Positions 5,740-49,256 of a stretch of DNA of 64,000 bases are shown here, piece by piece (positions within the stretch are counted from its first letter, which is position 1; the number at the start of each line of letters is the position of its first letter). The notes beneath the pieces were generated by a model. That model had not been told where the DNA came from. It made no database searches and worked only from the letters and a program-made list of their open reading frames with translations. Source of the stretch: a virus; the IMG/VR virus record IMGVR_UViG_3300045988_142756; one strand, 5' to 3'. The position numbers and the translations under genes were made by a program.

Positions 5740-5826
5740 GCGAGAGTGGTGAAATAGGCAGACACACAAGACTTAAAATCTTGAGAAGTAAAATTCGTGT
5801 GGGTTCAAGTCCCACCTTTCGCACCA
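5740..5826 (+). tRNA. tRNA-Leu (anticodon UAA), type II with long variable arm, encoded CCA
   Basis: Acceptor GCGAGAG/CTTTCGC; anticodon arm CAAGA-CTTAAAA-TCTTG; T arm GTGGG-TTCAAGT-CCCAC; ends ACCA. Confidence 0.9.
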
Positions 5827-6049
5827 CGGTGGCACGACAAATTGTCACCCTATGGATAAAAAATCGCGTGTGCTGAAATAAAGCAAGGGTTACTAACTAA
5901 TTCGCGGTAAGTTAATTGTAACAAGATACTCAAAGTACAAGAGTATGGTAGTAGTTTGGAAGCGGTTCTACTACAAAATTTTTAACAGGGCTACTTAGAA
6001 AACGAACGAGGGAAATATCGTGTCCGAAGTAAATTTAGCCCTACTTTAT

Positions 6050-6126
6050 CGGGGCGTGGCGCAGTTTGGGAGCGCGAATGGTTTGGGACCATTAGGCCGG
6101 AAGTTCAAATCTTCTCACCCCGACCA
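6050..6126 (+). tRNA. tRNA-Pro (anticodon UGG), encoded CCA
   Basis: D arm GCGC-AGTTTGGGA-GCGC; anticodon arm AATGG-TTTGGGA-CCATT; T arm GGAAG-TTCAAAT-CTTCT. One C-A mismatch in the acceptor stem. Confidence 0.85.
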
Positions 6127-6140
6127 AAATAAAAATATTT

Positions 6141-6217
6141 GGACCTTTAGCACAGTTGGTTAGTGCGTTCGGCTCATAACCGAATGGTCCTTGGTTCGAG
6201 TCCAAGAAGGTCCACCA
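6141..6217 (+). tRNA. tRNA-Met or tRNA-Ile2 (anticodon CAU), elongator type, encoded CCA
   Basis: Acceptor GGACCTT/AAGGTCC; D arm GCAC-AGTTGGTTA-GTGC; anticodon arm TTCGG-CTCATAA-CCGAA; T arm CTTGG-TTCGAGT-CCAAG. Confidence 0.9.
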
Positions 6218-6229
6218 GGTATTCGTTTT

Positions 6230-6302
6230 GTAGGTTTGCTGTTACCGCTGTAAAACAGTAATGAGAGAAAGATACGCGTTAAATATCTCATATCAAACCT
6301 AC
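6230..6302 (+). ncRNA. tRNA-sized (73 nt) three-way-junction element between tRNA-Met and tRNA-Thr
   Basis: A 9-bp closing stem GTAGGTTTG/CAAACCTAC. Inner hairpins CTGTT/AACAG and ATGAGA/TCTCAT. It is not a canonical cloverleaf. Confidence 0.2.
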
Positions 6303-6305
6303 CTT

Positions 6306-6380
6306 GCTGGTATGGCTCAATGGCAGAGCAATTGATTTGTAATCAATAGGTTGTTGGTTCGACTCCAACTATCAGCTCCA
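6306..6380 (+). tRNA. tRNA-Thr (anticodon UGU), encoded CCA
   Basis: Acceptor GCTGGTA/TATCAGC; D arm GCTC-AATGGCA-GAGC; anticodon arm ATTGA-TTTGTAA-TCAAT; T arm GTTGG-TTCGACT-CCAAC. Confidence 0.85.
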
Positions 6381-13012: not shown

Positions 13013-15055
13013 ATGCCAACGACAATAAATTTAAGAGAAGCCAAAATGTGGCAAATGAAAAAGTCGTTATATGCTTTCTTACGTGAAATGTGGGACGCAT
13101 ATGAAACGGCTCAGTATAGTGATATTTGGCTTATGGAATATCTATGTGAGTGCTTCCAGTATTCTGTGAAGCATTTTTTGCCGAATTATGTTTGGCGAGA
13201 TTGGATAACAGACGACGAATATAACTATATAAAAGAAAAATCTCACGGGGAGTGTCCTGTTAGAGATAAACTTATAAATGGCGAACACGTTCATAACCAC
13301 GATTGGAATATGCCACCTCGTCATTCAAAAAGTTCTATATTAAATATTTGTGGACCTGTTTGGTTAGGACTTAACTCACCTATATCCGTTGCAAGTGTAT
13401 CTCATACAGAACGCTTGTCAACAGAAATGAATACTAAACGCCAAAAATTATTGGAGAGTGATAAATTTAAGTATTATTTCACAGACAGTGCATATAGACT
13501 TAAAAATTCAACTGCTTCAATGATTAGACTTAACAGTGGGTCAACATTTTATTCGGTATGTCAATCATCTTTCACAGGTTTTGGTGCTGATGTTATTATA
13601 GCGGATGACTTAACTTCTGCCGATAATGCAAGAAAAGACGGACAAGTATTAAGAAATAGTATAGACTTTTTTAGAAAAACACTTCCAACCCGACTTAACA
13701 CAAAGAAAACAGGCGTAATATGGCATATAGAACAGAGAATTGCACGAGGCGATGTAAGTGGTTACATACAAGAGGATAAAGATTTATCGCGAGTATATAG
13801 TCATACAGAAATACAAGCAATAGCAACTGACGATAGAGTTTTAATATATCCGTGTAGTGGAAAAGTTAAAATAATTAAAAAAGGTGAAAAATTATGGCCT
13901 GAAAGATTTGGCGACTATTCTACTGCTAAAATGGAAATGGGTGCAGATGAATTTAATACTCAATACCAACAGGACGCAGGAGCGAGTGCAAGTAACATTG
14001 TTAAAGAACAATATATACATTATATAAGTGAAGAAGAATTTAGACGTGATTATAAACCTATGGCAGAATTCCATTATGGTTCACACGACTGCCCGGTAAA
14101 GGATAAAGAAATAAACGACTACCACGGGTTCGCAGAAGGATATGGTAGAGGTAATGAATTAGTAATATGCGAAGCGTGGCAAGAACATTTAGGGTATATA
14201 AAAGAAAAAGAACTATTAGTAAGTCTTGAAAATATAGACCCAGCAATAATACAGATAGTTGAAGATAAAGCAAACGGAGGTGCATTATTACAAGATTTAT
14301 CTTCTCAACTTGCAGGCTTAGCACCTTTTAATCCCGGAACAGACAGCAAATCTCAACGGTTGTCAATAGCAGCAACATATATGCAAAATGGAGCGGTAAG
14401 ATTTGTTAAATCCGATAAAACCTCAGAAGCAATAAGTAGTTTATTAAAATTTCCATTTTTAGTTCACGACGACGTTGTAGATGCTATAAGTCAAATGATT
14501 ATATATCACTTTACAAGTAGACGAATGGGTATATACACAAATAGTTTTACCTATCAAAATATAATACCAGATAGTGTTAGAGATAATTCACAATATTTGG
14601 AATATGGTGCAACTATTAACGGGGATACGATAAAGGTACTTGGTATAAATAGAATGTTTGATAGAGACGAATATGTTGTCGAAAAAGAATATATATTTAT
14701 AGGTATAAATAAATTTGAACAGTGGGCAAAAGAATTAAGAGGAAATTTATTATTAGATTGTAGTTATGAAAATAGATTATTTAACTTAGTTGATAAAAAT
14801 TCTGTATTTATGACCAAATTTAATGACACAGATACGGACAAATCTTTCCAACTTGTTAAATCTGGTTTTTATAATAACAAAATTAAAATATGTAACAGTT
14901 GCTCACAGACAAAAAACGACATTGCTAAATTAAGAATAACCGAATCATCACGCCGTAAAGGCACAGATGTACAAGAAACATTAGACGAAGGAATGGCGGG
15001 TTGCGTAAGAGGTTTAGTAACATATTTCAAAGGAATCGGTGGGCAGTGGTACTAA
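13013..15055 (+). CDS. terL: terminase large subunit
   Basis: Walker-A-like PPRHSKSS, Walker-B-like GADVIIADD, nuclease motif VHDDVVDAISQM. At 680 aa it has an unusually long C-terminal tail. Confidence 0.85.
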   Translation: MPTTINLREAKMWQMKKSLYAFLREMWDAYETAQYSDIWLMEYLCECFQYSVKHFLPNYVWRDWITDDEYNYIKEKSHGECPVRDKLINGEHVHNHDWNMPPRHSKSSILNICGPVWLGLNSPISVASVSHTERLSTEMNTKRQKLLESDKFKYYFTDSAYRLKNSTASMIRLNSGSTFYSVCQSSFTGFGADVIIADDLTSADNARKDGQVLRNSIDFFRKTLPTRLNTKKTGVIWHIEQRIARGDVSGYIQEDKDLSRVYSHTEIQAIATDDRVLIYPCSGKVKIIKKGEKLWPERFGDYSTAKMEMGADEFNTQYQQDAGASASNIVKEQYIHYISEEEFRRDYKPMAEFHYGSHDCPVKDKEINDYHGFAEGYGRGNELVICEAWQEHLGYIKEKELLVSLENIDPAIIQIVEDKANGGALLQDLSSQLAGLAPFNPGTDSKSQRLSIAATYMQNGAVRFVKSDKTSEAISSLLKFPFLVHDDVVDAISQMIIYHFTSRRMGIYTNSFTYQNIIPDSVRDNSQYLEYGATINGDTIKVLGINRMFDRDEYVVEKEYIFIGINKFEQWAKELRGNLLLDCSYENRLFNLVDKNSVFMTKFNDTDTDKSFQLVKSGFYNNKIKICNSCSQTKNDIAKLRITESSRRKGTDVQETLDEGMAGCVRGLVTYFKGIGGQWY

Positions 15056-17281: not shown

Positions 17282-18934
17282 ATGGACAGGCTCAAAAAGA
17301 ACACTTTAATAGACAATATTGAAATATCCATCAGTGACGCTGCACCTAAGATGCCAACTGATATAAGTAAAGCATCAGTAGAGCAACGCATTAAAATGGC
17401 TACAAAGTTAATGGACGACGCATTAGGTATGTCCGTTAGTAATGGTGTGAGCGTTAAAGATGGGTCTTTCAATAATAGTCGACTTAAATTAGGTATAAGT
17501 GATATAAACCTTAACAGTGGCGAATACTTCACTGATATGATTACATTCGACAGAATGACAATCATAGAATTATATCACGGAAACTGGATATTTAGAAGAA
17601 TAATTGACAGGGTTGCACAAGATATGTGGTCACACGGTATTGCTATAAAATGTGATACAGACCCAGTCGAATTAGAAAATGTTTACAAAAGATTAAATAG
17701 ATTAAACAGTCAACTTATTTATGGACGAGAGCAGGCAAGGTTATTTGGTGGTGCTGCCTCTCTTATTATGGTTGACGATGGTGAAGAAGATTTATCAAAA
17801 CCATTAAATATAAATAATATAAAACCACATTCCCCTATAAGATTATATACAACGGATAGATGGTACGGGTTAGAAACAAGTACTGAATTAGTAACTAACT
17901 TCAAGAGCGTTGATTTTAATACACCTAAATATTATACCTTCTATTTAGATAACGGCGATTCTAAACGGTCTACACAGTTCACAAGAGTACATCATAGCAG
18001 AGTACTTCGTCATACAAATAGACGAACTGTAAGAATGATGGAAGATAGGCTTATGGGCTGGGGGTTAAGTGAGTTAGAACATATTTATCAAACACTTCTT
18101 GCTCATACCACAATGAATATGTCTTCCGTATCACTTGTCGGCAAATCATTACTTGAAATTGTTAAGGTTTCGGGTATGAGAGGTATGATGAGTGGACTCA
18201 GTATGGGTAACAGTGGAGCACAAGCACAATTAGGTGCCCAGTTGTCTGCAATAAATAATTATAGAAACATAAATGATTTAGTTTTAATTGATAAAGATGA
18301 CGAATATGACAGAAAAGAACTTCAATTAAATGGATTAAATGATTTATTACAAAACGAACAAGAACTTATTGCAGGTGCTGCTGAAATGCCACAGGTTCTA
18401 ATTTACGGACAAACTAAAAATGGTTTAGGCGATAATGCAACTGAAATGGTATTCTACGCACAAACAATTCTTGGAAAACAAGAAGCAGAGTTAAGGGTAG
18501 AATTAGATAAATTATTACCTATAATATTTAAGGTAGAAGGATTAGAAGTACCTTCAAATTTAGACTATGATTTTAATAGTATAAATGATATGGAACCTGA
18601 TGCAAAAGTAAATCTTATAAATAGTGTAGCAGGTGCTATAAATACTCTTACCGAAGCAGGGTTAATGACAAAAGAAACCGGATTAGCAGAATTAAAACAA
18701 TATTCGGCTATAACTGGATTTGGTGCTAACTTAGCAGAAAGAGATTTAGAGTTAGCCAAACAAATGGACCAGCAGTCGGGTGAAGAAGAAGATGAACTGA
18801 GCGGAATGAATTTAGGTAGTAATGAACCACAAGTTGGTGAAGAACAACCTGAAGATAATTTAACCGATGACTATGCAGAAGTAAAAGAAAAGGTACTTAA
18901 AAATAAATTCTTTGATAGGAAAAAGCGTAAATGA
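17282..18934 (+). CDS. portal protein (DUF1073-type)
   Basis: 550 aa. Supported by its position, the motif ELYHGNWIFRRIIDRVAQDMW and an acidic C-terminal tail. Confidence 0.75.
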   Translation: MDRLKKNTLIDNIEISISDAAPKMPTDISKASVEQRIKMATKLMDDALGMSVSNGVSVKDGSFNNSRLKLGISDINLNSGEYFTDMITFDRMTIIELYHGNWIFRRIIDRVAQDMWSHGIAIKCDTDPVELENVYKRLNRLNSQLIYGREQARLFGGAASLIMVDDGEEDLSKPLNINNIKPHSPIRLYTTDRWYGLETSTELVTNFKSVDFNTPKYYTFYLDNGDSKRSTQFTRVHHSRVLRHTNRRTVRMMEDRLMGWGLSELEHIYQTLLAHTTMNMSSVSLVGKSLLEIVKVSGMRGMMSGLSMGNSGAQAQLGAQLSAINNYRNINDLVLIDKDDEYDRKELQLNGLNDLLQNEQELIAGAAEMPQVLIYGQTKNGLGDNATEMVFYAQTILGKQEAELRVELDKLLPIIFKVEGLEVPSNLDYDFNSINDMEPDAKVNLINSVAGAINTLTEAGLMTKETGLAELKQYSAITGFGANLAERDLELAKQMDQQSGEEEDELSGMNLGSNEPQVGEEQPEDNLTDDYAEVKEKVLKNKFFDRKKRK

Positions 18935-26809: not shown

Positions 26810-27946
26810 ATGGCAAATCAAATTTTTCAGCAAGTAAGCCTCAGAGATAGCACGGAAAGTATTGCGGCTACTCACGGCGAACAAAAACTTGGTATCAAAT
26901 TAAGGGATTGGGCTCCTGCTGTATATCATCAGTTGTATAAAGACCCTGTTAAGGCACGTATTCACGATGCAAACTTTGCATTCGTTATGACAACCCTTAG
27001 CAAACTTCACAATAAACAATATCAACCGAAAGTCAACTACACTTACGCACAAGATATTCCTATCGATGTCGGCGGTGGAATGGTTGATTTCGTGGATTAC
27101 TTCTCGGTAGAATGGGCAGGTCAGCCCACTGAGGACCAGAACGTTATGGGTAATAACGTCAATATTATTCCTCGTGTTAATGCTAAACTCAATCATACGG
27201 CAGTTGAAGTTTACAACTTTGAAATTGCTTATGATATGAAGTTTATTGAAGTTGACAAACTCGAGAAGATTAGTTTCCAAAAAGCAGTTGAAGCAATTTA
27301 TAAAGATGCTATTATGGCTGGTTGGGACCAGTTCTGTGACCGTATTGCTTATGAAGGTCGTGCAGGTGTTGATGGCTTTATCAACAATGCTAATGTTCCT
27401 GTAAATGAAATTCCGGCAGGTTCCAAAGATGCAAGTAAGACTGGTTTCGAAGGTATGACGGATGAAGAAATCGTAAGTTTCATTAACGGTATTCTTAACC
27501 TTTATCTTACTAACACTAACCAGAACATTGAAATGTTACCTGATACGTTATTACTTCCTACGAAAGATGCTGCTATTCTTTCGAGCAGGTTCAGTGCATT
27601 ATATACCTCGACATTGCGTGAATTCATTATGAAACACAATATAGGTATTGACGAAGCAGTTGCTGCTGGTGTTAATAACTATGTTCTTAAGATTCGTGGT
27701 CGTGCAAGACTTAACGGTATTGGCACACATAACACAGGTCGTATAATTGCTTATAAGTTCGATAAAGATTATGTCCGTATGGATATTCCTTATCCTATCC
27801 AGAGTTATTATACCGCTCCTAACATTGATAAAGCGTGCTATACCACATACTTTGTCGGTCAGGTATCTCGTATCCAACTTCCGTACAATGAGAGCGCTGA
27901 TACATTTGGTGCTGTTTCGTACTGGGATTTCGCTGCACAAGGCTAA
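26810..27946 (+). CDS. major capsid protein (DUF2184-like)
   Basis: 378 aa; GAGGAGG RBS. Supported by its position after the scaffold and by the hairpin that follows. Confidence 0.75.
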   Translation: MANQIFQQVSLRDSTESIAATHGEQKLGIKLRDWAPAVYHQLYKDPVKARIHDANFAFVMTTLSKLHNKQYQPKVNYTYAQDIPIDVGGGMVDFVDYFSVEWAGQPTEDQNVMGNNVNIIPRVNAKLNHTAVEVYNFEIAYDMKFIEVDKLEKISFQKAVEAIYKDAIMAGWDQFCDRIAYEGRAGVDGFINNANVPVNEIPAGSKDASKTGFEGMTDEEIVSFINGILNLYLTNTNQNIEMLPDTLLLPTKDAAILSSRFSALYTSTLREFIMKHNIGIDEAVAAGVNNYVLKIRGRARLNGIGTHNTGRIIAYKFDKDYVRMDIPYPIQSYYTAPNIDKACYTTYFVGQVSRIQLPYNESADTFGAVSYWDFAAQG

Positions 27947-33137: not shown

Positions 33138-34106
33138 ATGTTTGGAAGATTATTTGACATCACAGTTGTTAGTCCTATTGGTGAATCTACTTTACTTGTA
33201 GACCATACCAAAGGTGTTGATAACTTTATAGTTAAAGGTACTATAAGTAGATTTCCTTATACAGAAGTAGATACATTAGAGATAAATATATATAATTTAG
33301 CACCGCGATTATTAGGTCAGTTATATGCAAATCATTATTTTGATGGCGGGTTAATATATATTGATTTCGGGTATAAGGATACAGGTCCCTTACAAAGAAT
33401 ATTTGCGGGTAATATACAAAGAGCAATATTATCAAGACCTGATGCTGTAACAAATTGTGTAACTATCTATGCTTTTGACTGTGGTGATTTTGTTAATTAT
33501 GGATTCTTTGGCAAAACGTATGAAGATGGTTATAATATGTACGCGATAGCCCAAGATATATTGAAAGAAAATAATGTAACTAATTATCAGTTATCTGAAA
33601 AACTTAAAAATTTCAAATCTTATGGTACACAAACATATTCAGGGTCTGCGGATAAATATCTTAGTAATATCGCCGAACAGTGTGGAATGTATTATAAGAA
33701 AGAAAATATGCTGCTTAAAATGATTACTCCCGAAGAAGGTAGTCTTGAAGATGTAGTATATTTCACAACAAAAACTGACGGCAAAGTAACGTCAATGTCA
33801 GGTCTTATAGGTATTCCAAGATTAACTAATGACGGATTACATTTTAATTGTTTAATAAATCCTAAATTATCTATTTATGGTGTTTGTTATATTGATAACA
33901 GTATTATTTCAATAAGTCAAACGGAAGCAATACCAAGTAGTGTACAAATAGGTGCAACACTTGCAACAAACGGTATGTATAGAATAGTTAAGATGACTAC
34001 GACTTTTTCTAATAACGACGAAGAAAATTCAATGGCTATAAAAGCGTTAGCAAAAGATTTCTATGACCAATATACCGTAGACCAAGCAGCAACGAGGCGA
34101 AATTAA
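33138..34106 (+). CDS. baseplate hub-like protein (XkdQ / gpD position)
   Basis: 322 aa. Call based on synteny with the PBSX-type baseplate order. Confidence 0.45.
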   Translation: MFGRLFDITVVSPIGESTLLVDHTKGVDNFIVKGTISRFPYTEVDTLEINIYNLAPRLLGQLYANHYFDGGLIYIDFGYKDTGPLQRIFAGNIQRAILSRPDAVTNCVTIYAFDCGDFVNYGFFGKTYEDGYNMYAIAQDILKENNVTNYQLSEKLKNFKSYGTQTYSGSADKYLSNIAEQCGMYYKKENMLLKMITPEEGSLEDVVYFTTKTDGKVTSMSGLIGIPRLTNDGLHFNCLINPKLSIYGVCYIDNSIISISQTEAIPSSVQIGATLATNGMYRIVKMTTTFSNNDEENSMAIKALAKDFYDQYTVDQAATRRN

Positions 34107-34977: not shown

Positions 34978-36015
34978 ATGGCAGACACAAAATTGATAGA
35001 ATTTACGAAAGAAGGATTAAGAACTTCTACTAAACCAGAAATATTAAATGTCTTAACAAATATGACTGTTGAGGCGTTTGGTTCTGACTTCGCAGTAGAC
35101 GAAGGCTCGGCTTGGTATATATTTTTAGATAGTTTATCTAATTCATTAGATAATGTTTGTACAGCGGCAAGAGAATTATATAATGCTCAAGGTATTATAA
35201 ATGCTAATGGTTCTAATTTAGATAACATAGTATCGCTTGCTGGTATATATAGAAAGAAAGATGAAGCCGATGAACAATTAAGAAATAGAGCAATTAAATC
35301 AGTATATTCTACCGCTACTTCTGTCGCAGAGAGTTTAGAATCTGCTTTACTTCAACTTGATTATATAGAATTTGCAAGGGTGATTGATAACCCACAAGAT
35401 ACGAATATGACAGTAGGTGACGTAACTATTGCACCACATAATATATGGGTATTAGTTAAAGTAAAAGATGGTATAAGTATAGACCCTAACGATACTACTA
35501 CTGGTGGTGCAAAACGCGAAAAAGAAATAGCAGGAATAATTCTACACTACAAATCGTTAGGTAGTGGTACTATGAATACGCTTAAAACAGAAAACAACCA
35601 GACGACAGAATCCGTAACTGGTACAACAAGTCACACAGCAAATGTATCTATAGATGGTGTTGATTATACAATAAAATTTAACGAGATTGGTTCACAAGAT
35701 ATATTTGTCAACGTAACATTAAATATAGAACAAGCGTATGAAGATAAAAAGAAGACAATACAAAAATCCGTACAAAAGGCTATTGTAGACTATATAAATT
35801 CTTTAGGTATAGGACAAGATGTATTGATGAGTCGAGTTGTTTCCGCAATAAGTGATACGAATACTTATACTGATTACGGATTTGATGTAAAAACTATTAC
35901 GATTGGTGACACTGCTGAACCTACAGGTACAATGGTTACTATACCTGTTTATAAACGAGCAGTAACAGTTAATAGTAAAGTTAAGATAGATGGTTCGGAC
36001 CCTTCTGCAGAATAA
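34978..36015 (+). CDS. baseplate J-like protein (gp6 / gpJ / XkdT-like)
   Basis: 345 aa. The N-terminal region fits the Baseplate_J pattern (...AFGSDFAVDEGSAWY...GSNLDNIVSLAGIYRK). Confidence 0.65.
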   Translation: MADTKLIEFTKEGLRTSTKPEILNVLTNMTVEAFGSDFAVDEGSAWYIFLDSLSNSLDNVCTAARELYNAQGIINANGSNLDNIVSLAGIYRKKDEADEQLRNRAIKSVYSTATSVAESLESALLQLDYIEFARVIDNPQDTNMTVGDVTIAPHNIWVLVKVKDGISIDPNDTTTGGAKREKEIAGIILHYKSLGSGTMNTLKTENNQTTESVTGTTSHTANVSIDGVDYTIKFNEIGSQDIFVNVTLNIEQAYEDKKKTIQKSVQKAIVDYINSLGIGQDVLMSRVVSAISDTNTYTDYGFDVKTITIGDTAEPTGTMVTIPVYKRAVTVNSKVKIDGSDPSAE

Positions 36016-44517: not shown

Positions 44518-46428
44518 ATGCCGAGTTTTTATAACAATATTAACTTGAACAAATGTGAATTACAAAATGCTGTAATTCAGAATTTAACAACGGCACCAGA
44601 AAATGCTAAGATGGGTCAGCATTACTATAATACTGCTGATAAAACAGAGTACATTTACAACGGTACAACGTGGATTCCTATTGCATCTGGTGATGGCACA
44701 ATTAAGAGTGTTACTGCTGGTAATGGTTTAACCGGTGGTGGTAGCACGGCTAATGTAACTGTATCTATGGGTACACCCAGTGATGTAACACTTACTTCTG
44801 CGAATGAAGTAACAAATGAATCACACACTCATAAATTAGTTATTCCTGATGCAACTGCATCTGCAAAAGGTCTTGCACAAAAAGCAACAGACGCAGAATT
44901 AACTGCTGGTACTGATGACACTAAATTTATTTCGCCTAAGCAGTTAAAAACTGGTATTGCTAATAAATTAGACAAGAATACAGCAATAACTGGTGCAACT
45001 AAATGTAAGATTACTTATGATAGTAAAGGTCTTGTAACCAAAGGTGAGAATTTAAGTGCTTCCGATATTCCTGACCTTACATTATCAAAGATAACTGATG
45101 TAACTGCCTCTACTACTGAGGTAAATTATCTTGTAGGAGTTACATCAGGTATTCAAGAACAATTAAATAGTAAAGCGACTGGAACTGCATTAACGAGTCA
45201 CATAAACAATACAGAAAACCCGCACAGCGTTACTAAAACTCAGGTTGGATTAGGTAATGTTACAAATGACGCTCAGGTAAAAAGAAGTGAAATGGGTGCA
45301 GCAAGTGGTGTTGCAACACTTGACGCAAATGCTAAAATACCAACAGCACAATTACCTGATTATATTTTGGGTCAATTACTTTATGGCGGCAACGTAGCAG
45401 CAGGTCCTATTGCTACATTATCAGTAAATGCAAAAGCAAAATTAAATACCACATCAACAACAATTACCTTAACTAATGATAATACTGCTACAACAGGTTA
45501 TGTATCTAATAACGGTATTTATTATATCGCTACTGAAACATTTACTTTTGCTGGTATAGAATTTAAGGTAGGTGACTGGTTACTTTCTAACGGCAGTGCT
45601 TGGACGAAGATTGACAATACGGATGCTGTAACAGGCGTTAAAGGTGATAAAGAATCAAGTTATAGAATAGGAAATGTTAATATAACTCCTGCTAATATTG
45701 GCGCTTTACCAGATACTACAACAGCGACAGATATTGGTGCATTACCCGATACTACAACTTATGTAAGTTCTATTAAAGAAGGTACTGCTAACGGAACTAT
45801 TGGCGTATCTACAAAAGGTGGCGCAGCAGTAAATGTTGCTGTCCACGGATTAGGTTCGGCTGCATATAAAACAGTAGGTAGTGCAATAGGTAACTTGCCT
45901 GAGGTTGGTACTGCGTTAGGTACTACTGCTAATGTTCCTGTTTTAGTTAATGCGTCTGGAAAACTTATTCCGGGCAAAGCAGCAATAGGTGATGCCGCTT
46001 ATAAAGGAGTTGCTACTGAATTACAAAGCGGCAATAATAACCTTGTTACAAGTGGTTTAGTTGCTGACGCTATTGCAGGATTAGATAAAGGTACTGTTAC
46101 GAGTGTTGCATTATCAATGCCTACTGGATTTACCGTTGCAGGTTCTCCTATAACAACAGCAGGCACATTAAATGTAACATTAGCAAATGGTTATTCGTTA
46201 CTTAGGAAAAAGGCATTTACAATAAGTGCTGCAACAGCAGTAGATTCAGGAACAGATGCTTCTTATACATTAACACATAGTTTTGGAACGCAAGAAGTTG
46301 TCGTTACAATACGAGAAACTGCAACAAATGAAGTTGTATATGCAGATGTTGTATTAGCGGCAAATTCTATAACAGTAACATTTGCAGAAAAAGCAACACA
46401 AACTTTCTCAGTTGTTGTTATGGCATAA
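44518..46428 (+). CDS. tail fibre protein
   Basis: The N-terminus NINLNKCELQNAVIQNLTTAPENAKMGQHYYNT...YIYNGTTWIPI is typical of fibre proteins. Also TASAKGLAQKATDAELTAGTDDTKFISPKQL and the tandem IGALPDTTT repeat. Confidence 0.75.
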   Translation: MPSFYNNINLNKCELQNAVIQNLTTAPENAKMGQHYYNTADKTEYIYNGTTWIPIASGDGTIKSVTAGNGLTGGGSTANVTVSMGTPSDVTLTSANEVTNESHTHKLVIPDATASAKGLAQKATDAELTAGTDDTKFISPKQLKTGIANKLDKNTAITGATKCKITYDSKGLVTKGENLSASDIPDLTLSKITDVTASTTEVNYLVGVTSGIQEQLNSKATGTALTSHINNTENPHSVTKTQVGLGNVTNDAQVKRSEMGAASGVATLDANAKIPTAQLPDYILGQLLYGGNVAAGPIATLSVNAKAKLNTTSTTITLTNDNTATTGYVSNNGIYYIATETFTFAGIEFKVGDWLLSNGSAWTKIDNTDAVTGVKGDKESSYRIGNVNITPANIGALPDTTTATDIGALPDTTTYVSSIKEGTANGTIGVSTKGGAAVNVAVHGLGSAAYKTVGSAIGNLPEVGTALGTTANVPVLVNASGKLIPGKAAIGDAAYKGVATELQSGNNNLVTSGLVADAIAGLDKGTVTSVALSMPTGFTVAGSPITTAGTLNVTLANGYSLLRKKAFTISAATAVDSGTDASYTLTHSFGTQEVVVTIRETATNEVVYADVVLAANSITVTFAEKATQTFSVVVMA

Positions 46429-46474: not shown

Positions 46475-47797
46475 ATGAAGAATTATTCAAAAATAACAGA
46501 AAACAAAGATATTTTAACAAAGGAATACGCTGATTCTACTTATGCAAAATTAAGTGGCGGCGTTACTTATACAAAGTTAGTAGGCTCAGTTAATTTTACC
46601 GTAACACCTTATACTAATGACCCTTATTTTTTAGACCAGAATGCAGCAACGTGGTCAGAAAATTCAGTTGTTGGTAACAAAGCATTAACAAGTACAACTG
46701 ATATTGGACTATTTATTGGTAATTCTTATGGAATGACAGTAAATATTCAGGGTACATCATATTATCGTACGGCTACGGCACAAGATGGAAGTAGTTATGG
46801 AATACCTGGTACTAAGATACTATTATTTAGTATGGGAGATACAGAATTTTATATATACGACCACTGTACTATTGTAGGAGGTAATGCACAAGCAGGGAAT
46901 GGGTGTGTTATAGCTACAAATTTAAGTACTGACATAACAATAGCAAATATAAATTATTTTTCAGGTGACCGTGGAATAATAAACCCTGTTACAATTACTA
47001 ATTCAGCAATTAAAACAAATAGTGCTGTTACAATGTATATCAATACAGATAATGTTATTAACGGCACAAAAACAAATGGCGACATTACACTCACAGCAAG
47101 TAGTATAGGTTCTGTAAATTATGAATTAGAAATATTTGCTACTACAACAGAAGGTCTCTTTGAAATAATAAATACATATAAACCTGTATTAACAGAATAT
47201 ATGGTATCAGATTGGGGTTTTACAAAAAATACAGGTACTGTTACTGCCATAATTGCTAACGGACATCAATATGACCCAGAAGGTAGCATTGTTGACCTTA
47301 ATACAGTTGTAAAATCAGTACAGGCTAATGGAACAAATTTTAACCCTGACGCAACAGGTAAAGTTGATTTAGGTAATATTGGTGGTGGTTCAGGGCCTTT
47401 ACAATTTGCTGACACTGTTGTTATGACAGAGGCTGAATTTTCCGAAGCGTATCTGGCTGGCACTTTACAAGATGATAAACTATATTTAATTGAAGGCGAG
47501 ACAGGAACGGTGAATTTCGTTTCTACTGCTGACCACATAGTTTATAATAGTGCTAATTCTGGACTTACAGCAACGAATGTACAAGGTGCTGTTGACGAAA
47601 TAAATAGTAAACTATTTAGTGGTTCTTATAACGATTTAACCGATAAATTAACGCACACAGACATATTAACATTGTTAAATTTAACCGAGGAACAATTAAC
47701 CAAATTGATTGCATTGCTCAATAAACTTACGGTTGATACTACAAGTGTTAAGTTTAATAATACTACTGTTAAAGCGACAACCTTTGACGTTCAGTAG
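46475..47797 (+). CDS. tail fibre or receptor-binding-like protein
   Basis: 440 aa, T/N/G-rich and beta-rich; GAGGAA RBS. Confidence 0.55.
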   Translation: MKNYSKITENKDILTKEYADSTYAKLSGGVTYTKLVGSVNFTVTPYTNDPYFLDQNAATWSENSVVGNKALTSTTDIGLFIGNSYGMTVNIQGTSYYRTATAQDGSSYGIPGTKILLFSMGDTEFYIYDHCTIVGGNAQAGNGCVIATNLSTDITIANINYFSGDRGIINPVTITNSAIKTNSAVTMYINTDNVINGTKTNGDITLTASSIGSVNYELEIFATTTEGLFEIINTYKPVLTEYMVSDWGFTKNTGTVTAIIANGHQYDPEGSIVDLNTVVKSVQANGTNFNPDATGKVDLGNIGGGSGPLQFADTVVMTEAEFSEAYLAGTLQDDKLYLIEGETGTVNFVSTADHIVYNSANSGLTATNVQGAVDEINSKLFSGSYNDLTDKLTHTDILTLLNLTEEQLTKLIALLNKLTVDTTSVKFNNTTVKATTFDVQ

Positions 47798-47808
47798 TGA
47801 GGTGAGTT

Positions 47809-48336
47809 ATGCCTATTTATGTTTATAAAATGAACAAACAAATTAGCACAAATGCTATAAGAAACACTAAGCCAGTTAAAGCAATTTACGCTAAAGAACA
47901 AGAACAAGAAGCCGTTTGTGTTTGGGGTATTAACTTAAATATTGTACCTTTTACATATACTAAAAGTGAAACATCAATAACAATAACTGGATTAAAAAAC
48001 GGCGTTAATATGCAACATTTAAGGGTCCCTGAAGCAATTGAAGATTTGCCAGTTACTCTAATTACCTACGACGCATTTAAGAATAACACAGTATTGAAAT
48101 CGATTAAATTACCAAATTCCTTAAATAGTATCGGAATTCGTGCCTTCCAAGGTTGCTCCGGGCTTACGAGCATAACCATTCCGGATAGTGTAACGAATAT
48201 AAGTGGTTCTGCCTTCCGTGGTTGCTCCGGGCTTACGAGTGTGACAATCGGTAGCGGTATAAAATTTATGGACAGTTATGCTTTTTATGGTTGTTACAAC
48301 CTTCAAAACATATATGTCACGGATATAGTAGCGTGA
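47809..48336 (+). CDS. BspA-type leucine-rich-repeat protein, N-terminal part, ending at an in-frame TGA
   Basis: Repeats [24 protein letters not shown]. It stops at ...YVTDIVA-TGA, where related LRR proteins have a Trp (AWC). Confidence 0.65.
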   Translation: MPIYVYKMNKQISTNAIRNTKPVKAIYAKEQEQEAVCVWGINLNIVPFTYTKSETSITITGLKNGVNMQHLRVPEAIEDLPVTLITYDAFKNNTVLKSIKLPNSLNSIGIRAFQGCSGLTSITIPDSVTNISGSAFRGCSGLTSVTIGSGIKFMDSYAFYGCYNLQNIYVTDIVA

Positions 48337-48360
48337 TGTGGCATTAGTGGATTAGAAGGT

Positions 48361-48672
48361 TTGATGGAATATGGCTCAAGCAACAAGAAGTTGTATATAA
48401 ACAATGAACTTGCCACATCCATTACAATCCATAATGGTGTAACGAAAATCGGTGGTTCTGCCTTCCGTGGTTGCTCCGGGCTTACGAGTGTGACAATCCC
48501 AGACAGCGTAACGAGTATCGGCGTGCGTGTCTTCTATAATTGCTCCGGGCTTACGAGCATAACTTTTAATGGAACAAAAGCACAGTGGAACGCAATTTCA
48601 AAAGGCAATCAGTGGAATCTACAAACAGGTAACTATACAATTCATTGTACAGACGGAGATATACCTAAATAA
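48361..48672 (+). CDS. BspA-type LRR protein, C-terminal part; same frame as 47809..48336
   Basis: Only the single TGA at 48334-48336 separates the two ORFs. ATG at 48364 has a weak GAAGG RBS. The repeats continue as [24 protein letters not shown]. Confidence 0.5.
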
Positions 48673-49256
48673 TGGCAACAAATTATAAAATCAATAATGT
48701 CGATATAGACAGTATATATGAAACTTTCACTACTTCGGTTGCTCAACAATACGGTGTAACAGATAGTAAATTTACCGATTCTACTGTCAAATTTAAGAAA
48801 AACGGGCAACCATTGAAAACTGCCATTGGAAAAACATTCCCCACAAGTGCAGATACACATTTAGGTGGTTCAAACACCTGTACTCAATACAAAGTAAATG
48901 GACAACCGATTGATGTCGCTCTTAAAGGTTGCCGACCCATAGGAATTCCATTAGCAACATTATCCGTAGGCACACACTATATAAATAGAGTAAATGGAGA
49001 AACGTGGCTTTCAACAAGTGCTAATTCTGCAACAGGAACTCGTTTAGATTACAATCCTAAGTTTATTTTTGTAGAACTTCAAGGTGGTGGTGGCGGTGGA
49101 GCATCTGCATTTGCTAATGGTTCAAATGGCGACCGTAGAGAAAAACCCTCGTCACCGGGTATTCAAGGAAGTGGCGGTGCAGGTGCGGGGTTCCACGCAG
49201 GTCGTGCTAATCCAGGTATTGAAGGTGGCGATGGTCTTGCAATTATTTATTATTAG
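48672..49256 (+). CDS. glycine-rich-domain protein of the tail-fibre region
   Basis: ELQGGGGGGASAFANGSNG...GSGGAGAGFHAG...GGDGLAIIYY. Confidence 0.6.
   Translation: MATNYKINNVDIDSIYETFTTSVAQQYGVTDSKFTDSTVKFKKNGQPLKTAIGKTFPTSADTHLGGSNTCTQYKVNGQPIDVALKGCRPIGIPLATLSVGTHYINRVNGETWLSTSANSATGTRLDYNPKFIFVELQGGGGGGASAFANGSNGDRREKPSSPGIQGSGGAGAGFHAGRANPGIEGGDGLAIIYY

Follow-up and report, generated by a model that had tools for sequence, protein, structure and literature searches.

A probable recent nonsense mutation at a conserved tryptophan codon of a leucine-rich-repeat gene in an uncultured gut phage

In a 64-kb stretch (64,000 nucleotides, hereafter the window) of the approximately 93.5-kb genome of an uncultured gut myovirus-like phage (IMG/VR record IMGVR_UViG_3300045988_142756), a gene encoding a leucine-rich-repeat (LRR) protein is interrupted by an in-frame TGA codon. 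The two open reading frames (ORFs) at this locus, 47809..48336 (175 aa, starting with ATG) and 48361..48672 (103 aa from a TTG, with an ATG at 48364), share one frame, and the TGA at 48334-48336 is the single stop between them; read through, the gene has 287 codons. A first-pass annotation, made from the sequence alone, had drawn attention to this arrangement, and its ORF coordinates and lone in-frame stop were all correct on recheck. This TGA alone, among the coding-strand TGAs of the window, has at least 70 open codons on each side. The locus is composed of the following parts:

47799..47805, plus strand: Shine-Dalgarno (SD) sequence GAGGTGA ahead of the ATG at 47809 of the LRR gene; duplex with the anti-SD sequence of -10.7 kcal/mol
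47809..48333, plus strand: codons 1-175 of the LRR_5 gene, giving the 175-aa protein P0121 if translation ends at the TGA
48334..48336, plus strand: in-frame TGA in place of the codon for Trp176; TGG in relatives, one G-to-A change at 48336
48337..48672, plus strand: codons 177-287 and the TAA stop; sequence identical to that of intact alleles
48354..48366, plus strand: possible re-initiation site (SD-like AGAAGGT at 48354-48360, TTG at 48361, ATG at 48364), 25-28 nt past the TGA

The predicted strength of the GAGGTGA element places it in the top quarter among the genes of the phage. In codons 1-175, a conserved N-terminal region of about 75-100 aa is accompanied by two regular LRR units of 23 residues each, and an irregular long unit is encoded here up to its middle; the remainder of that unit falls in codons 177-287, together with two more regular units and a near-invariant C-terminal cap. 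The cap follows the pattern FNGTxxQW..I.K...W...(G), after which come 10 further residues; its invariant columns are F253, T256, Q259, W260, Y276, T277 and H279-D284.

The gene product is a BspA-type LRR_5 protein. The 287-residue read-through protein matches the Pfam family LRR_5 (PF13306) in two stretches, at 133.8 bits (E = 4.2e-39; the curated gathering cut-off is 27.7), which upholds the LRR label first given to it; the stretch at residues 85-170 falls in the 175-aa part. Sequence matches in the PDB include 4gt6 and 4fs7 (E about 1e-45), both cell-surface proteins of gut bacteria. The LRR array, with its four regular units of about 23 residues and one long unit, is predicted by an AlphaFold2 model (25 homologues; mean pLDDT, the predicted local distance difference test, of 84.5) to have a regular strand periodicity, the confidence being high in the solenoid and C-terminal cap but low over the first ~45 residues. 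Residue 176 lies, in the model, inside a short helix of the irregular long repeat. Among viral proteins, the structural neighbours of the model come from uncultured gut phages and are named ‘leucine-rich repeat proteins’. Like BspA-type LRR proteins, the product has 23-residue units of the form F..C..L.SI.IP.SVT.IG, an irregular long unit with an ..AWC.I.. motif and a ..QW..I.. C-terminal cap. It differs from them in its N-terminal region, which is modelled with low confidence and is found within the phage family only, and in that the gene in the window is broken by a stop.

The TGA occupies a position at which tryptophan is expected. This had been proposed from an A-W-C-x-I motif of BspA-type LRR proteins, and the homologues confirm both the motif and the expectation. 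Trp is present in every homologue that has the long-unit segment, down to about 50% identity: it occurs, as [A/V/G]-W-C, in P0001-P0005, P0007, P0026, P0122, P0125, P0126 and P0130-P0143 and at loci L010, L013 and L018, and P0006 has three copies of the long unit, each with Trp. At the DNA level, the codon is TGG in L001, L009, L010, L031 and L032. A protein search recovered an intact 287-aa protein (P0001) that equals the Trp-substituted read-through query save for R137Q. Over 11.3 kb, its locus in another sample (L001) has 99.2% identity to the window, and the gene differs there at three bases, of which two (48218-48219) account for R137Q and the third, at 48336, gives TGG instead of TGA. 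In a third sample (L009, encoding P0122), the flanks are 99.6% identical to the window, and the only differences in the gene are at 48273 (C/T) and 48336 (A/G, TGA versus TGG). Around 48336, the TGA and TGG alleles have the sequences GTAGCGTGATGTGGC and GTAGCGTGGTGTGGC, respectively.

Since Trp is conserved among the homologues and the siblings have TGG, the TGA is the derived state and arose through a single G-to-A transition. Furthermore, strains more than 99% identical to the window carry an intact gene, which argues for an ordinary recent mutation and not for a programmed recoding signal. A recent nonsense mutation, one of the explanations initially listed, thus fits a gene that is separated from its L009 counterpart by one further base and from that of L001 by three bases in all.

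The stop does not recur in the collections that we searched. Ten hypothetical 175-aa prefixes of sister alleles were absent from a collection of 15 billion proteins, none of the 11 loci in a survey of IMG/VR was interrupted, and a pattern search of IMG/VR that took TRR for the W codon matched only the contig of L010, which has TGG. Two degenerate patterns over the W/stop site had no matches in JGI metagenome contigs, the second of these patterns being blind to L010-like alleles, which have T and not A or V two residues before the W. A 103-aa JGI protein (P0129) from a sister cluster, that of P0003 (JGI/IMG contigs, the longest of 111,518 bp), has as its first codon the counterpart of TTG 48361. 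The other members of its lineage, which is 85% identical in its DNA, are all intact (287/288 aa), and P0129 represents either another interrupted allele or a quirk of gene calling. In the sister lineage carrying P0133, the neighbourhood of the LRR gene is unlike that in the window, and a Phage_integrase-family gene is found about 2 kb downstream of the LRR gene (L031 5924-6769; L032 6305-6769).

If the stop were a sequencing or consensus artefact, the true codon would be TGG, and it is the case that only one base at this site separates the window from L009. The window is identical to scaffold_154 of ENA assembly ERZ28575440, from BioSample SAMEA2151007, and P0121 is recorded on three contigs, in both JGI/IMG and ENA, which may share one sample. 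However, the TGA lies in unique, non-homopolymer sequence between repeats, which together with the records in several assemblies makes such an artefact unlikely. Moreover, a contig from NCBI encodes a second 175-aa haplotype (P0124), which is equally truncated and has an extra S132G. The presence of the TGA in two haplotypes indicates that it is not a sequencing error, and overall we judge the probability of an artefact to be very small indeed.

A protein that ends at the TGA would lack two LRR units and the invariant C-terminal cap, and is probably non-functional or strongly impaired. The window contains no second LRR paralogue able to buffer such a loss. It could be argued that the mutation has instead created a split gene, in which the 175-aa fragment and a fragment of 102 or 103 aa, re-initiated at ATG 48364 or TTG 48361, are both made and act together or separately. 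The start codons 25-28 nt after the stop, with AGAAGGT ahead of them, and the prediction by the JGI gene caller of a 102-aa product from ATG 48364 (P0123) agree with this idea. However, AGAAGGT is a weak SD sequence (duplex of -4.5 kcal/mol), to which 71% of the phage genes have a stronger counterpart and which is equalled in score at 19% of the ATGs in the window. Intact alleles carry the identical sequence, which therefore did not arise for the purpose of initiation. A break at this point would also fall inside the helix that is modelled within the long LRR unit, and no naturally split family member was found at this point. A split gene with two working fragments therefore seems highly doubtful to us.

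Explanations in which the TGA is decoded have to be weighed against how the phage otherwise uses this codon. Among the stops of 69 plus-strand ORFs, 50 are TAA, 13 are TGA and 6 are TAG. TGA thereby terminates 12 other phage genes, with many of the TGA stops in ATGA overlaps. There are 200 TGG codons versus one in-frame TGA, and only one pair of ORFs is split at a TGA on the coding strand. A cluster at 5740-6380 encodes tRNAs for Leu(UAA), Pro(UGG), Met(CAU) and Thr(UGU); it is conserved in the phage family, in which some relatives add tRNA-Gln(UUG) and tRNA-Leu(UAG) (L006 15180-15720; L007 15403-15477). ARAGORN, run on the window and the 10 kb upstream (L004; ~74 of 93.5 kb in all) and on five relatives, detected no suppressor tRNA(UCA). 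The fold of the region around and after the stop (48325-48440, 116 nt) has a free energy of -24.6 kcal/mol, which is no better than that of shuffled sequences (z = -0.57) and thus gives no sign of a read-through stimulator or of a hairpin resembling a selenocysteine insertion sequence. The +4 base after the TGA is a T, and the same TGAT context occurs at three ordinary TGA terminators of the phage; T at this position is not known to be a leaky context in E. coli.

The phage uses the standard code. A change in the code, whether TGA were read as Trp (as in code 4, or through the recoding in late genes that is reported for some gut phages) or as selenocysteine, would agree with a stop that replaces Trp and lies in a late structural gene, but it is contradicted by the 12 genes that end in TGA, ATGA overlaps included, by the codon counts, by TGG in the siblings, by the failure to find a tRNA(UCA) in ~74 of 93.5 kb or in five relatives and by the absence of a hairpin after the stop, such that we assign it a negligible probability. 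Global recoding of TGA under code 4 is effectively refuted by the stop usage and the TGG and TGA counts, and selenocysteine or a read-through stimulator is rejected, no significant RNA structure having been found. Phages with recoded stops have many in-frame stops, avoid the codon as a terminator and usually encode a suppressor tRNA. Such recoding, of TGA to Trp or of TAG to Gln, was reportedly described in crAss-like and Lak phages of the gut by Borges et al. in 2022 and Yutin et al. in 2021. The phage studied here shares with them its gut origin and an in-frame TGA that takes the place of Trp in a late gene, but shows none of these hallmarks.

Leaky read-through, another of the initial suggestions, is not supported as a programmed feature, given that relatives do not have the stop at this position, that neither a suppressor tRNA nor a downstream structure was found and that TGA is a normal terminator in this phage. 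A weaker form of the idea is that near-cognate Trp-tRNA yields a low but useful dose of full-length protein beside an abundant 175-aa form, and that the allele has been selected as a dosage variant. In E. coli, Trp-tRNATrp competes with release factor 2 at UGA (PMC10570021), which would restore the exact wild-type sequence. In addition, the part of the gene downstream of the stop is undamaged and two haplotypes carry the allele. On the other hand, the stop is missing from all siblings and homologues, no stimulatory structure or suppressor tRNA came to light, and the +4 T is common to ordinary terminators. We consider a selected dosage variant unlikely. An instructive comparison is phage Q-beta, in which UGA read-through with Trp extends the coat protein to the minor capsid protein A1 and in which the stop is fixed and essential. 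The two cases have in common a UGA in a gene of the structural region, a tRNA-Trp that would decode it, and short and long products with a common N-terminus. The stop in the window, however, varies between strains, and all relatives have TGG at the codon concerned; the stop breaks one domain and does not separate two, and no stimulatory element was found for it.

The TGA is flanked by perfect direct repeats, whose coordinates and spacings had been given exactly in the first-pass annotation:

48153..48176, plus strand: 24-bp repeat, copy 1, in LRR unit 1; TTGCTCCGGGCTTACGAGCATAAC, encoding the peptide CSGLTSIT
48203..48249, plus strand: 47-bp repeat, copy 1, in LRR unit 2; GTGGTTCTGCCTTCCGTGGTTGCTCCGGGCTTACGAGTGTGACAATC, encoding a 15-residue peptide
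48452..48498, plus strand: 47-bp repeat, copy 2, in LRR unit 4; 249 bp (83 codons) downstream of copy 1
48540..48563, plus strand: 24-bp repeat, copy 2, in LRR unit 5; 387 bp downstream of copy 1

Both repeats have exactly two copies in the window, and an 18-bp core, TTGCTCCGGGCTTACGAG, has four (at 48153, 48222, 48471 and 48540), one in each regular LRR unit. All spacings, for the 47-bp, 24-bp and 18-bp repeats, are multiples of 3. The 47-bp repeat includes codons that are rare in the phage (GCC, TCC and GTG at about 5%, ATC at 7%, GGG at 8% and ACG at 9%), and the chance that two stretches encoding the same peptide with phage codon usage would have 15 of 15 identical synonymous codons is ~4e-7. 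This identity at the DNA level exceeds chance and thus reflects recent duplication or gene conversion and not merely a repeated protein motif. The length of perfect identity depends on the lineage, with 47 bp in the window, 30 bp in L001 and 26 bp in L010. In L001, unit 2 matches unit 1 over 30 bp, with CAA for CGT (the R137Q state), and the S132G of P0124 lengthens the identity between units 2 and 4; both changes look like patches of gene conversion between units. The LRR array (48100-48620) has a G+C content of ~44% (peaks of 45-49%), versus ~31% for the N- and C-terminal parts of the gene and for the genome, and uses the phage-rare codons GCC, TCC, GGG, ACG, GTG and ATC. Base composition and codon usage of this kind suggest that the repeat units are of foreign origin, perhaps from a higher-GC, possibly bacterial, LRR_5 gene.

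We simulated deletions across the repeats. Recombination across the 47-bp pair leaves an open ORF of 204 aa and recombination across the 24-bp pair one of 158 aa, the TGA being gone in both cases, so the claim that either event removes the stop in frame holds. The junction of the 249-bp deletion consists of the left flank of copy 1, AATATAAGT, the 47-bp repeat and the right flank of copy 2, CCAGACAGC. Comparable forms exist in nature. P0027 (204 aa, four contigs) and P0128 (205 aa) correspond to a sister allele minus the 83-codon segment between the two copies of the 15-residue repeat, and a simulated 249-bp deletion of L010 reproduces P0027 at 201 of its 204 residues, with an identical junction. 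P0125 (264 aa) is the allele of the window with TGG minus 69 bp (23 codons) between the 18-bp cores at 48471 and 48540, and P0127 (182 aa) has lost about one more unit (22-23 residues) than P0027 and P0128. A natural form of ~160 aa with a single unit is present in IMG/VR (L017), other relatives exceed 480 aa, and members of the family have from one to more than 10 LRR units between a constant N-terminal region and a constant C-terminal cap. These alleles show that the LRR gene family does evolve by losing units through recombination between repeats of identical DNA sequence.

These deletions raise the question of whether the TGA is the ‘off’ state of a repeat-mediated on/off or length switch, from which frequent recombination would produce shorter ‘on’ proteins (204 or 158 aa) and thus phase variation of an adhesin. 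Part of this proposal stands, since either deletion takes out the TGA and preserves the frame, and since deletions of the predicted types exist, with the 249-bp architecture in a sister lineage (P0027, P0128), losses of one unit (69 bp in P0125, and P0127) and the one-unit form of L017. What does not stand is a link to the TGA or any sign of switching. Every known deletion is on a TGG background, the TGA lineage having none on record; identity over 47 bp is confined to one lineage and hence not a conserved device; and a deletion is irreversible, which is not how a switch behaves. A switch thus seems quite improbable. Other surface proteins with tandem repeats, such as internalins and collagen-like phage fibres, vary by unequal recombination or slipped mispairing. 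Variation in repeat number has also been described in BspA-like genes of Trichomonas (PMC2843621). The phage LRR gene resembles such repeat-number-variable surface proteins in having DNA-identical units, in-frame gains and losses of whole units in close strains (P0125, P0027, P0127, L017) and gene-conversion patches between units. It is different in that there is no evidence of a high-frequency, reversible and regulated switch in the phage, and the variation is seen between samples, not within one population.

We consider it likely that the locus carries a recent TGG-to-TGA nonsense allele of a dispensable, fast-evolving LRR gene in the tail module, and that its product is mostly a truncated protein of 175 aa without the C-terminal cap. 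A single G-to-A transition at 48336 turned the TGG of Trp176 into TGA, at which release factor 2 would end most rounds of translation. The phage would tolerate the resulting fragment because the LRR protein is dispensable or only conditionally useful. A small fraction of ribosomes may insert Trp at the UGA by means of near-cognate Trp-tRNA(CCA), giving the exact wild-type protein, in what we would take to be generic UGA leakiness and not an evolved signal. The perfect repeats are the LRR units themselves, probably kept identical in their DNA by gene conversion. As repeats of this kind drive in-frame loss of units, a deletion of 249 or 387 bp, a back-mutation or recombination with a TGG relative could reopen the gene.

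Several observations weigh against a recent, largely inactivating nonsense mutation. The 336 nt downstream of the stop show no secondary damage and the allele is found in two haplotypes, and ongoing use of the downstream part, by read-through or re-initiation, would look the same as recency. The 0-2 differences per gene are too few to measure selection. The tRNA scan covered the genome from about record position 20.5 kb onwards. The three P0121 contigs may derive from a single sample, and P0129, with its 103 aa from the homologous TTG in a sister cluster, is a loose end. One could also imagine that the TGA allele is maintained, with UGA at the Trp codon serving as a tunable attenuator of an LRR adhesin, read-through by Trp-tRNA setting the dose according to the state of the host, and recombination between the repeats supplying a shorter, constitutively ‘on’ form, as a two-tier bet-hedging of host range. 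If this were true, the P0124 haplotype and P0129 would be further instances. We regard such maintenance as a long shot, and favour a recent nonsense mutation.

The LRR gene is located in the late structural module, downstream of the genes for the baseplate hub, the wedge and a tail-collar-fibre-like protein. The structural genes are positioned as follows:

13013-15055: terminase
17282-18934: portal
26810-27946: major head protein
33138-34106: baseplate hub
34978-36015: wedge
44518-46428: tail-collar-fibre-like protein

Given this position in the tail-fibre module, a receptor-binding role of the LRR protein is plausible. A literature search on whether BspA-type LRR proteins serve phages in receptor binding gave nothing directly relevant. 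Portal proteins of cultured phages share no more than 30% identity with the portal encoded here, and the LRR gene had no DNA match in the INPHARED phage collection. A search of GTDB genomes for a host returned distant bacterial LRR_5 proteins only (at most 52%), and no phage copy.

Variation in length is also seen in genes next to the LRR gene. The fibre-like protein encoded at 46475-47797 has 440 aa, versus 211 aa in L009, and 763 bp of the window (46546-47308) correspond there to 76 bp, a net difference of 229 codons in frame. The Gly-rich gene at 48672-49256 encodes 194 aa, versus 335 aa (Pfam Gly_rich_2) in L009; it is a form with an in-frame deletion of 423 bp (141 codons), bounded by a 19-bp poly-Gly direct repeat (49085-49103). 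The L001 scaffold has a gap (a run of N) in this gene. The differences in size of the fibre-like, LRR and Gly-rich genes thus indicate that three adjacent genes of the tail module vary by in-frame insertions and deletions in strains that are more than 99% identical. Elsewhere, the phage family also encodes a sigma-70 region-2 protein, clamp-loader delta subunits, a single-stranded DNA-binding protein and, at variable positions, genes resembling HNH/NUMOD homing endonucleases. In one relative (L007, positions 1-1229), a region of the genome upstream of the start of the window contains a DnaX-like clamp-loader gene (747 aa) with intein and Hint matches.

The interrupted LRR gene is therefore a real but ordinary finding, namely a strain-level nonsense polymorphism in a variable accessory gene of a phage, and as found it matters little. 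It illustrates that recoding should not be presumed whenever a phage genome from a metagenome has TGA in frame where a Trp codon is expected. A by-product of the analysis is a natural series of alleles, with one to more than 10 LRR units between constant ends and with exact deletions of units and gene-conversion patches among near-identical strains. This series shows LRR tail proteins of phages changing in length through homologous repeats, and it could guide engineering or studies of host range if the phage were cultured.

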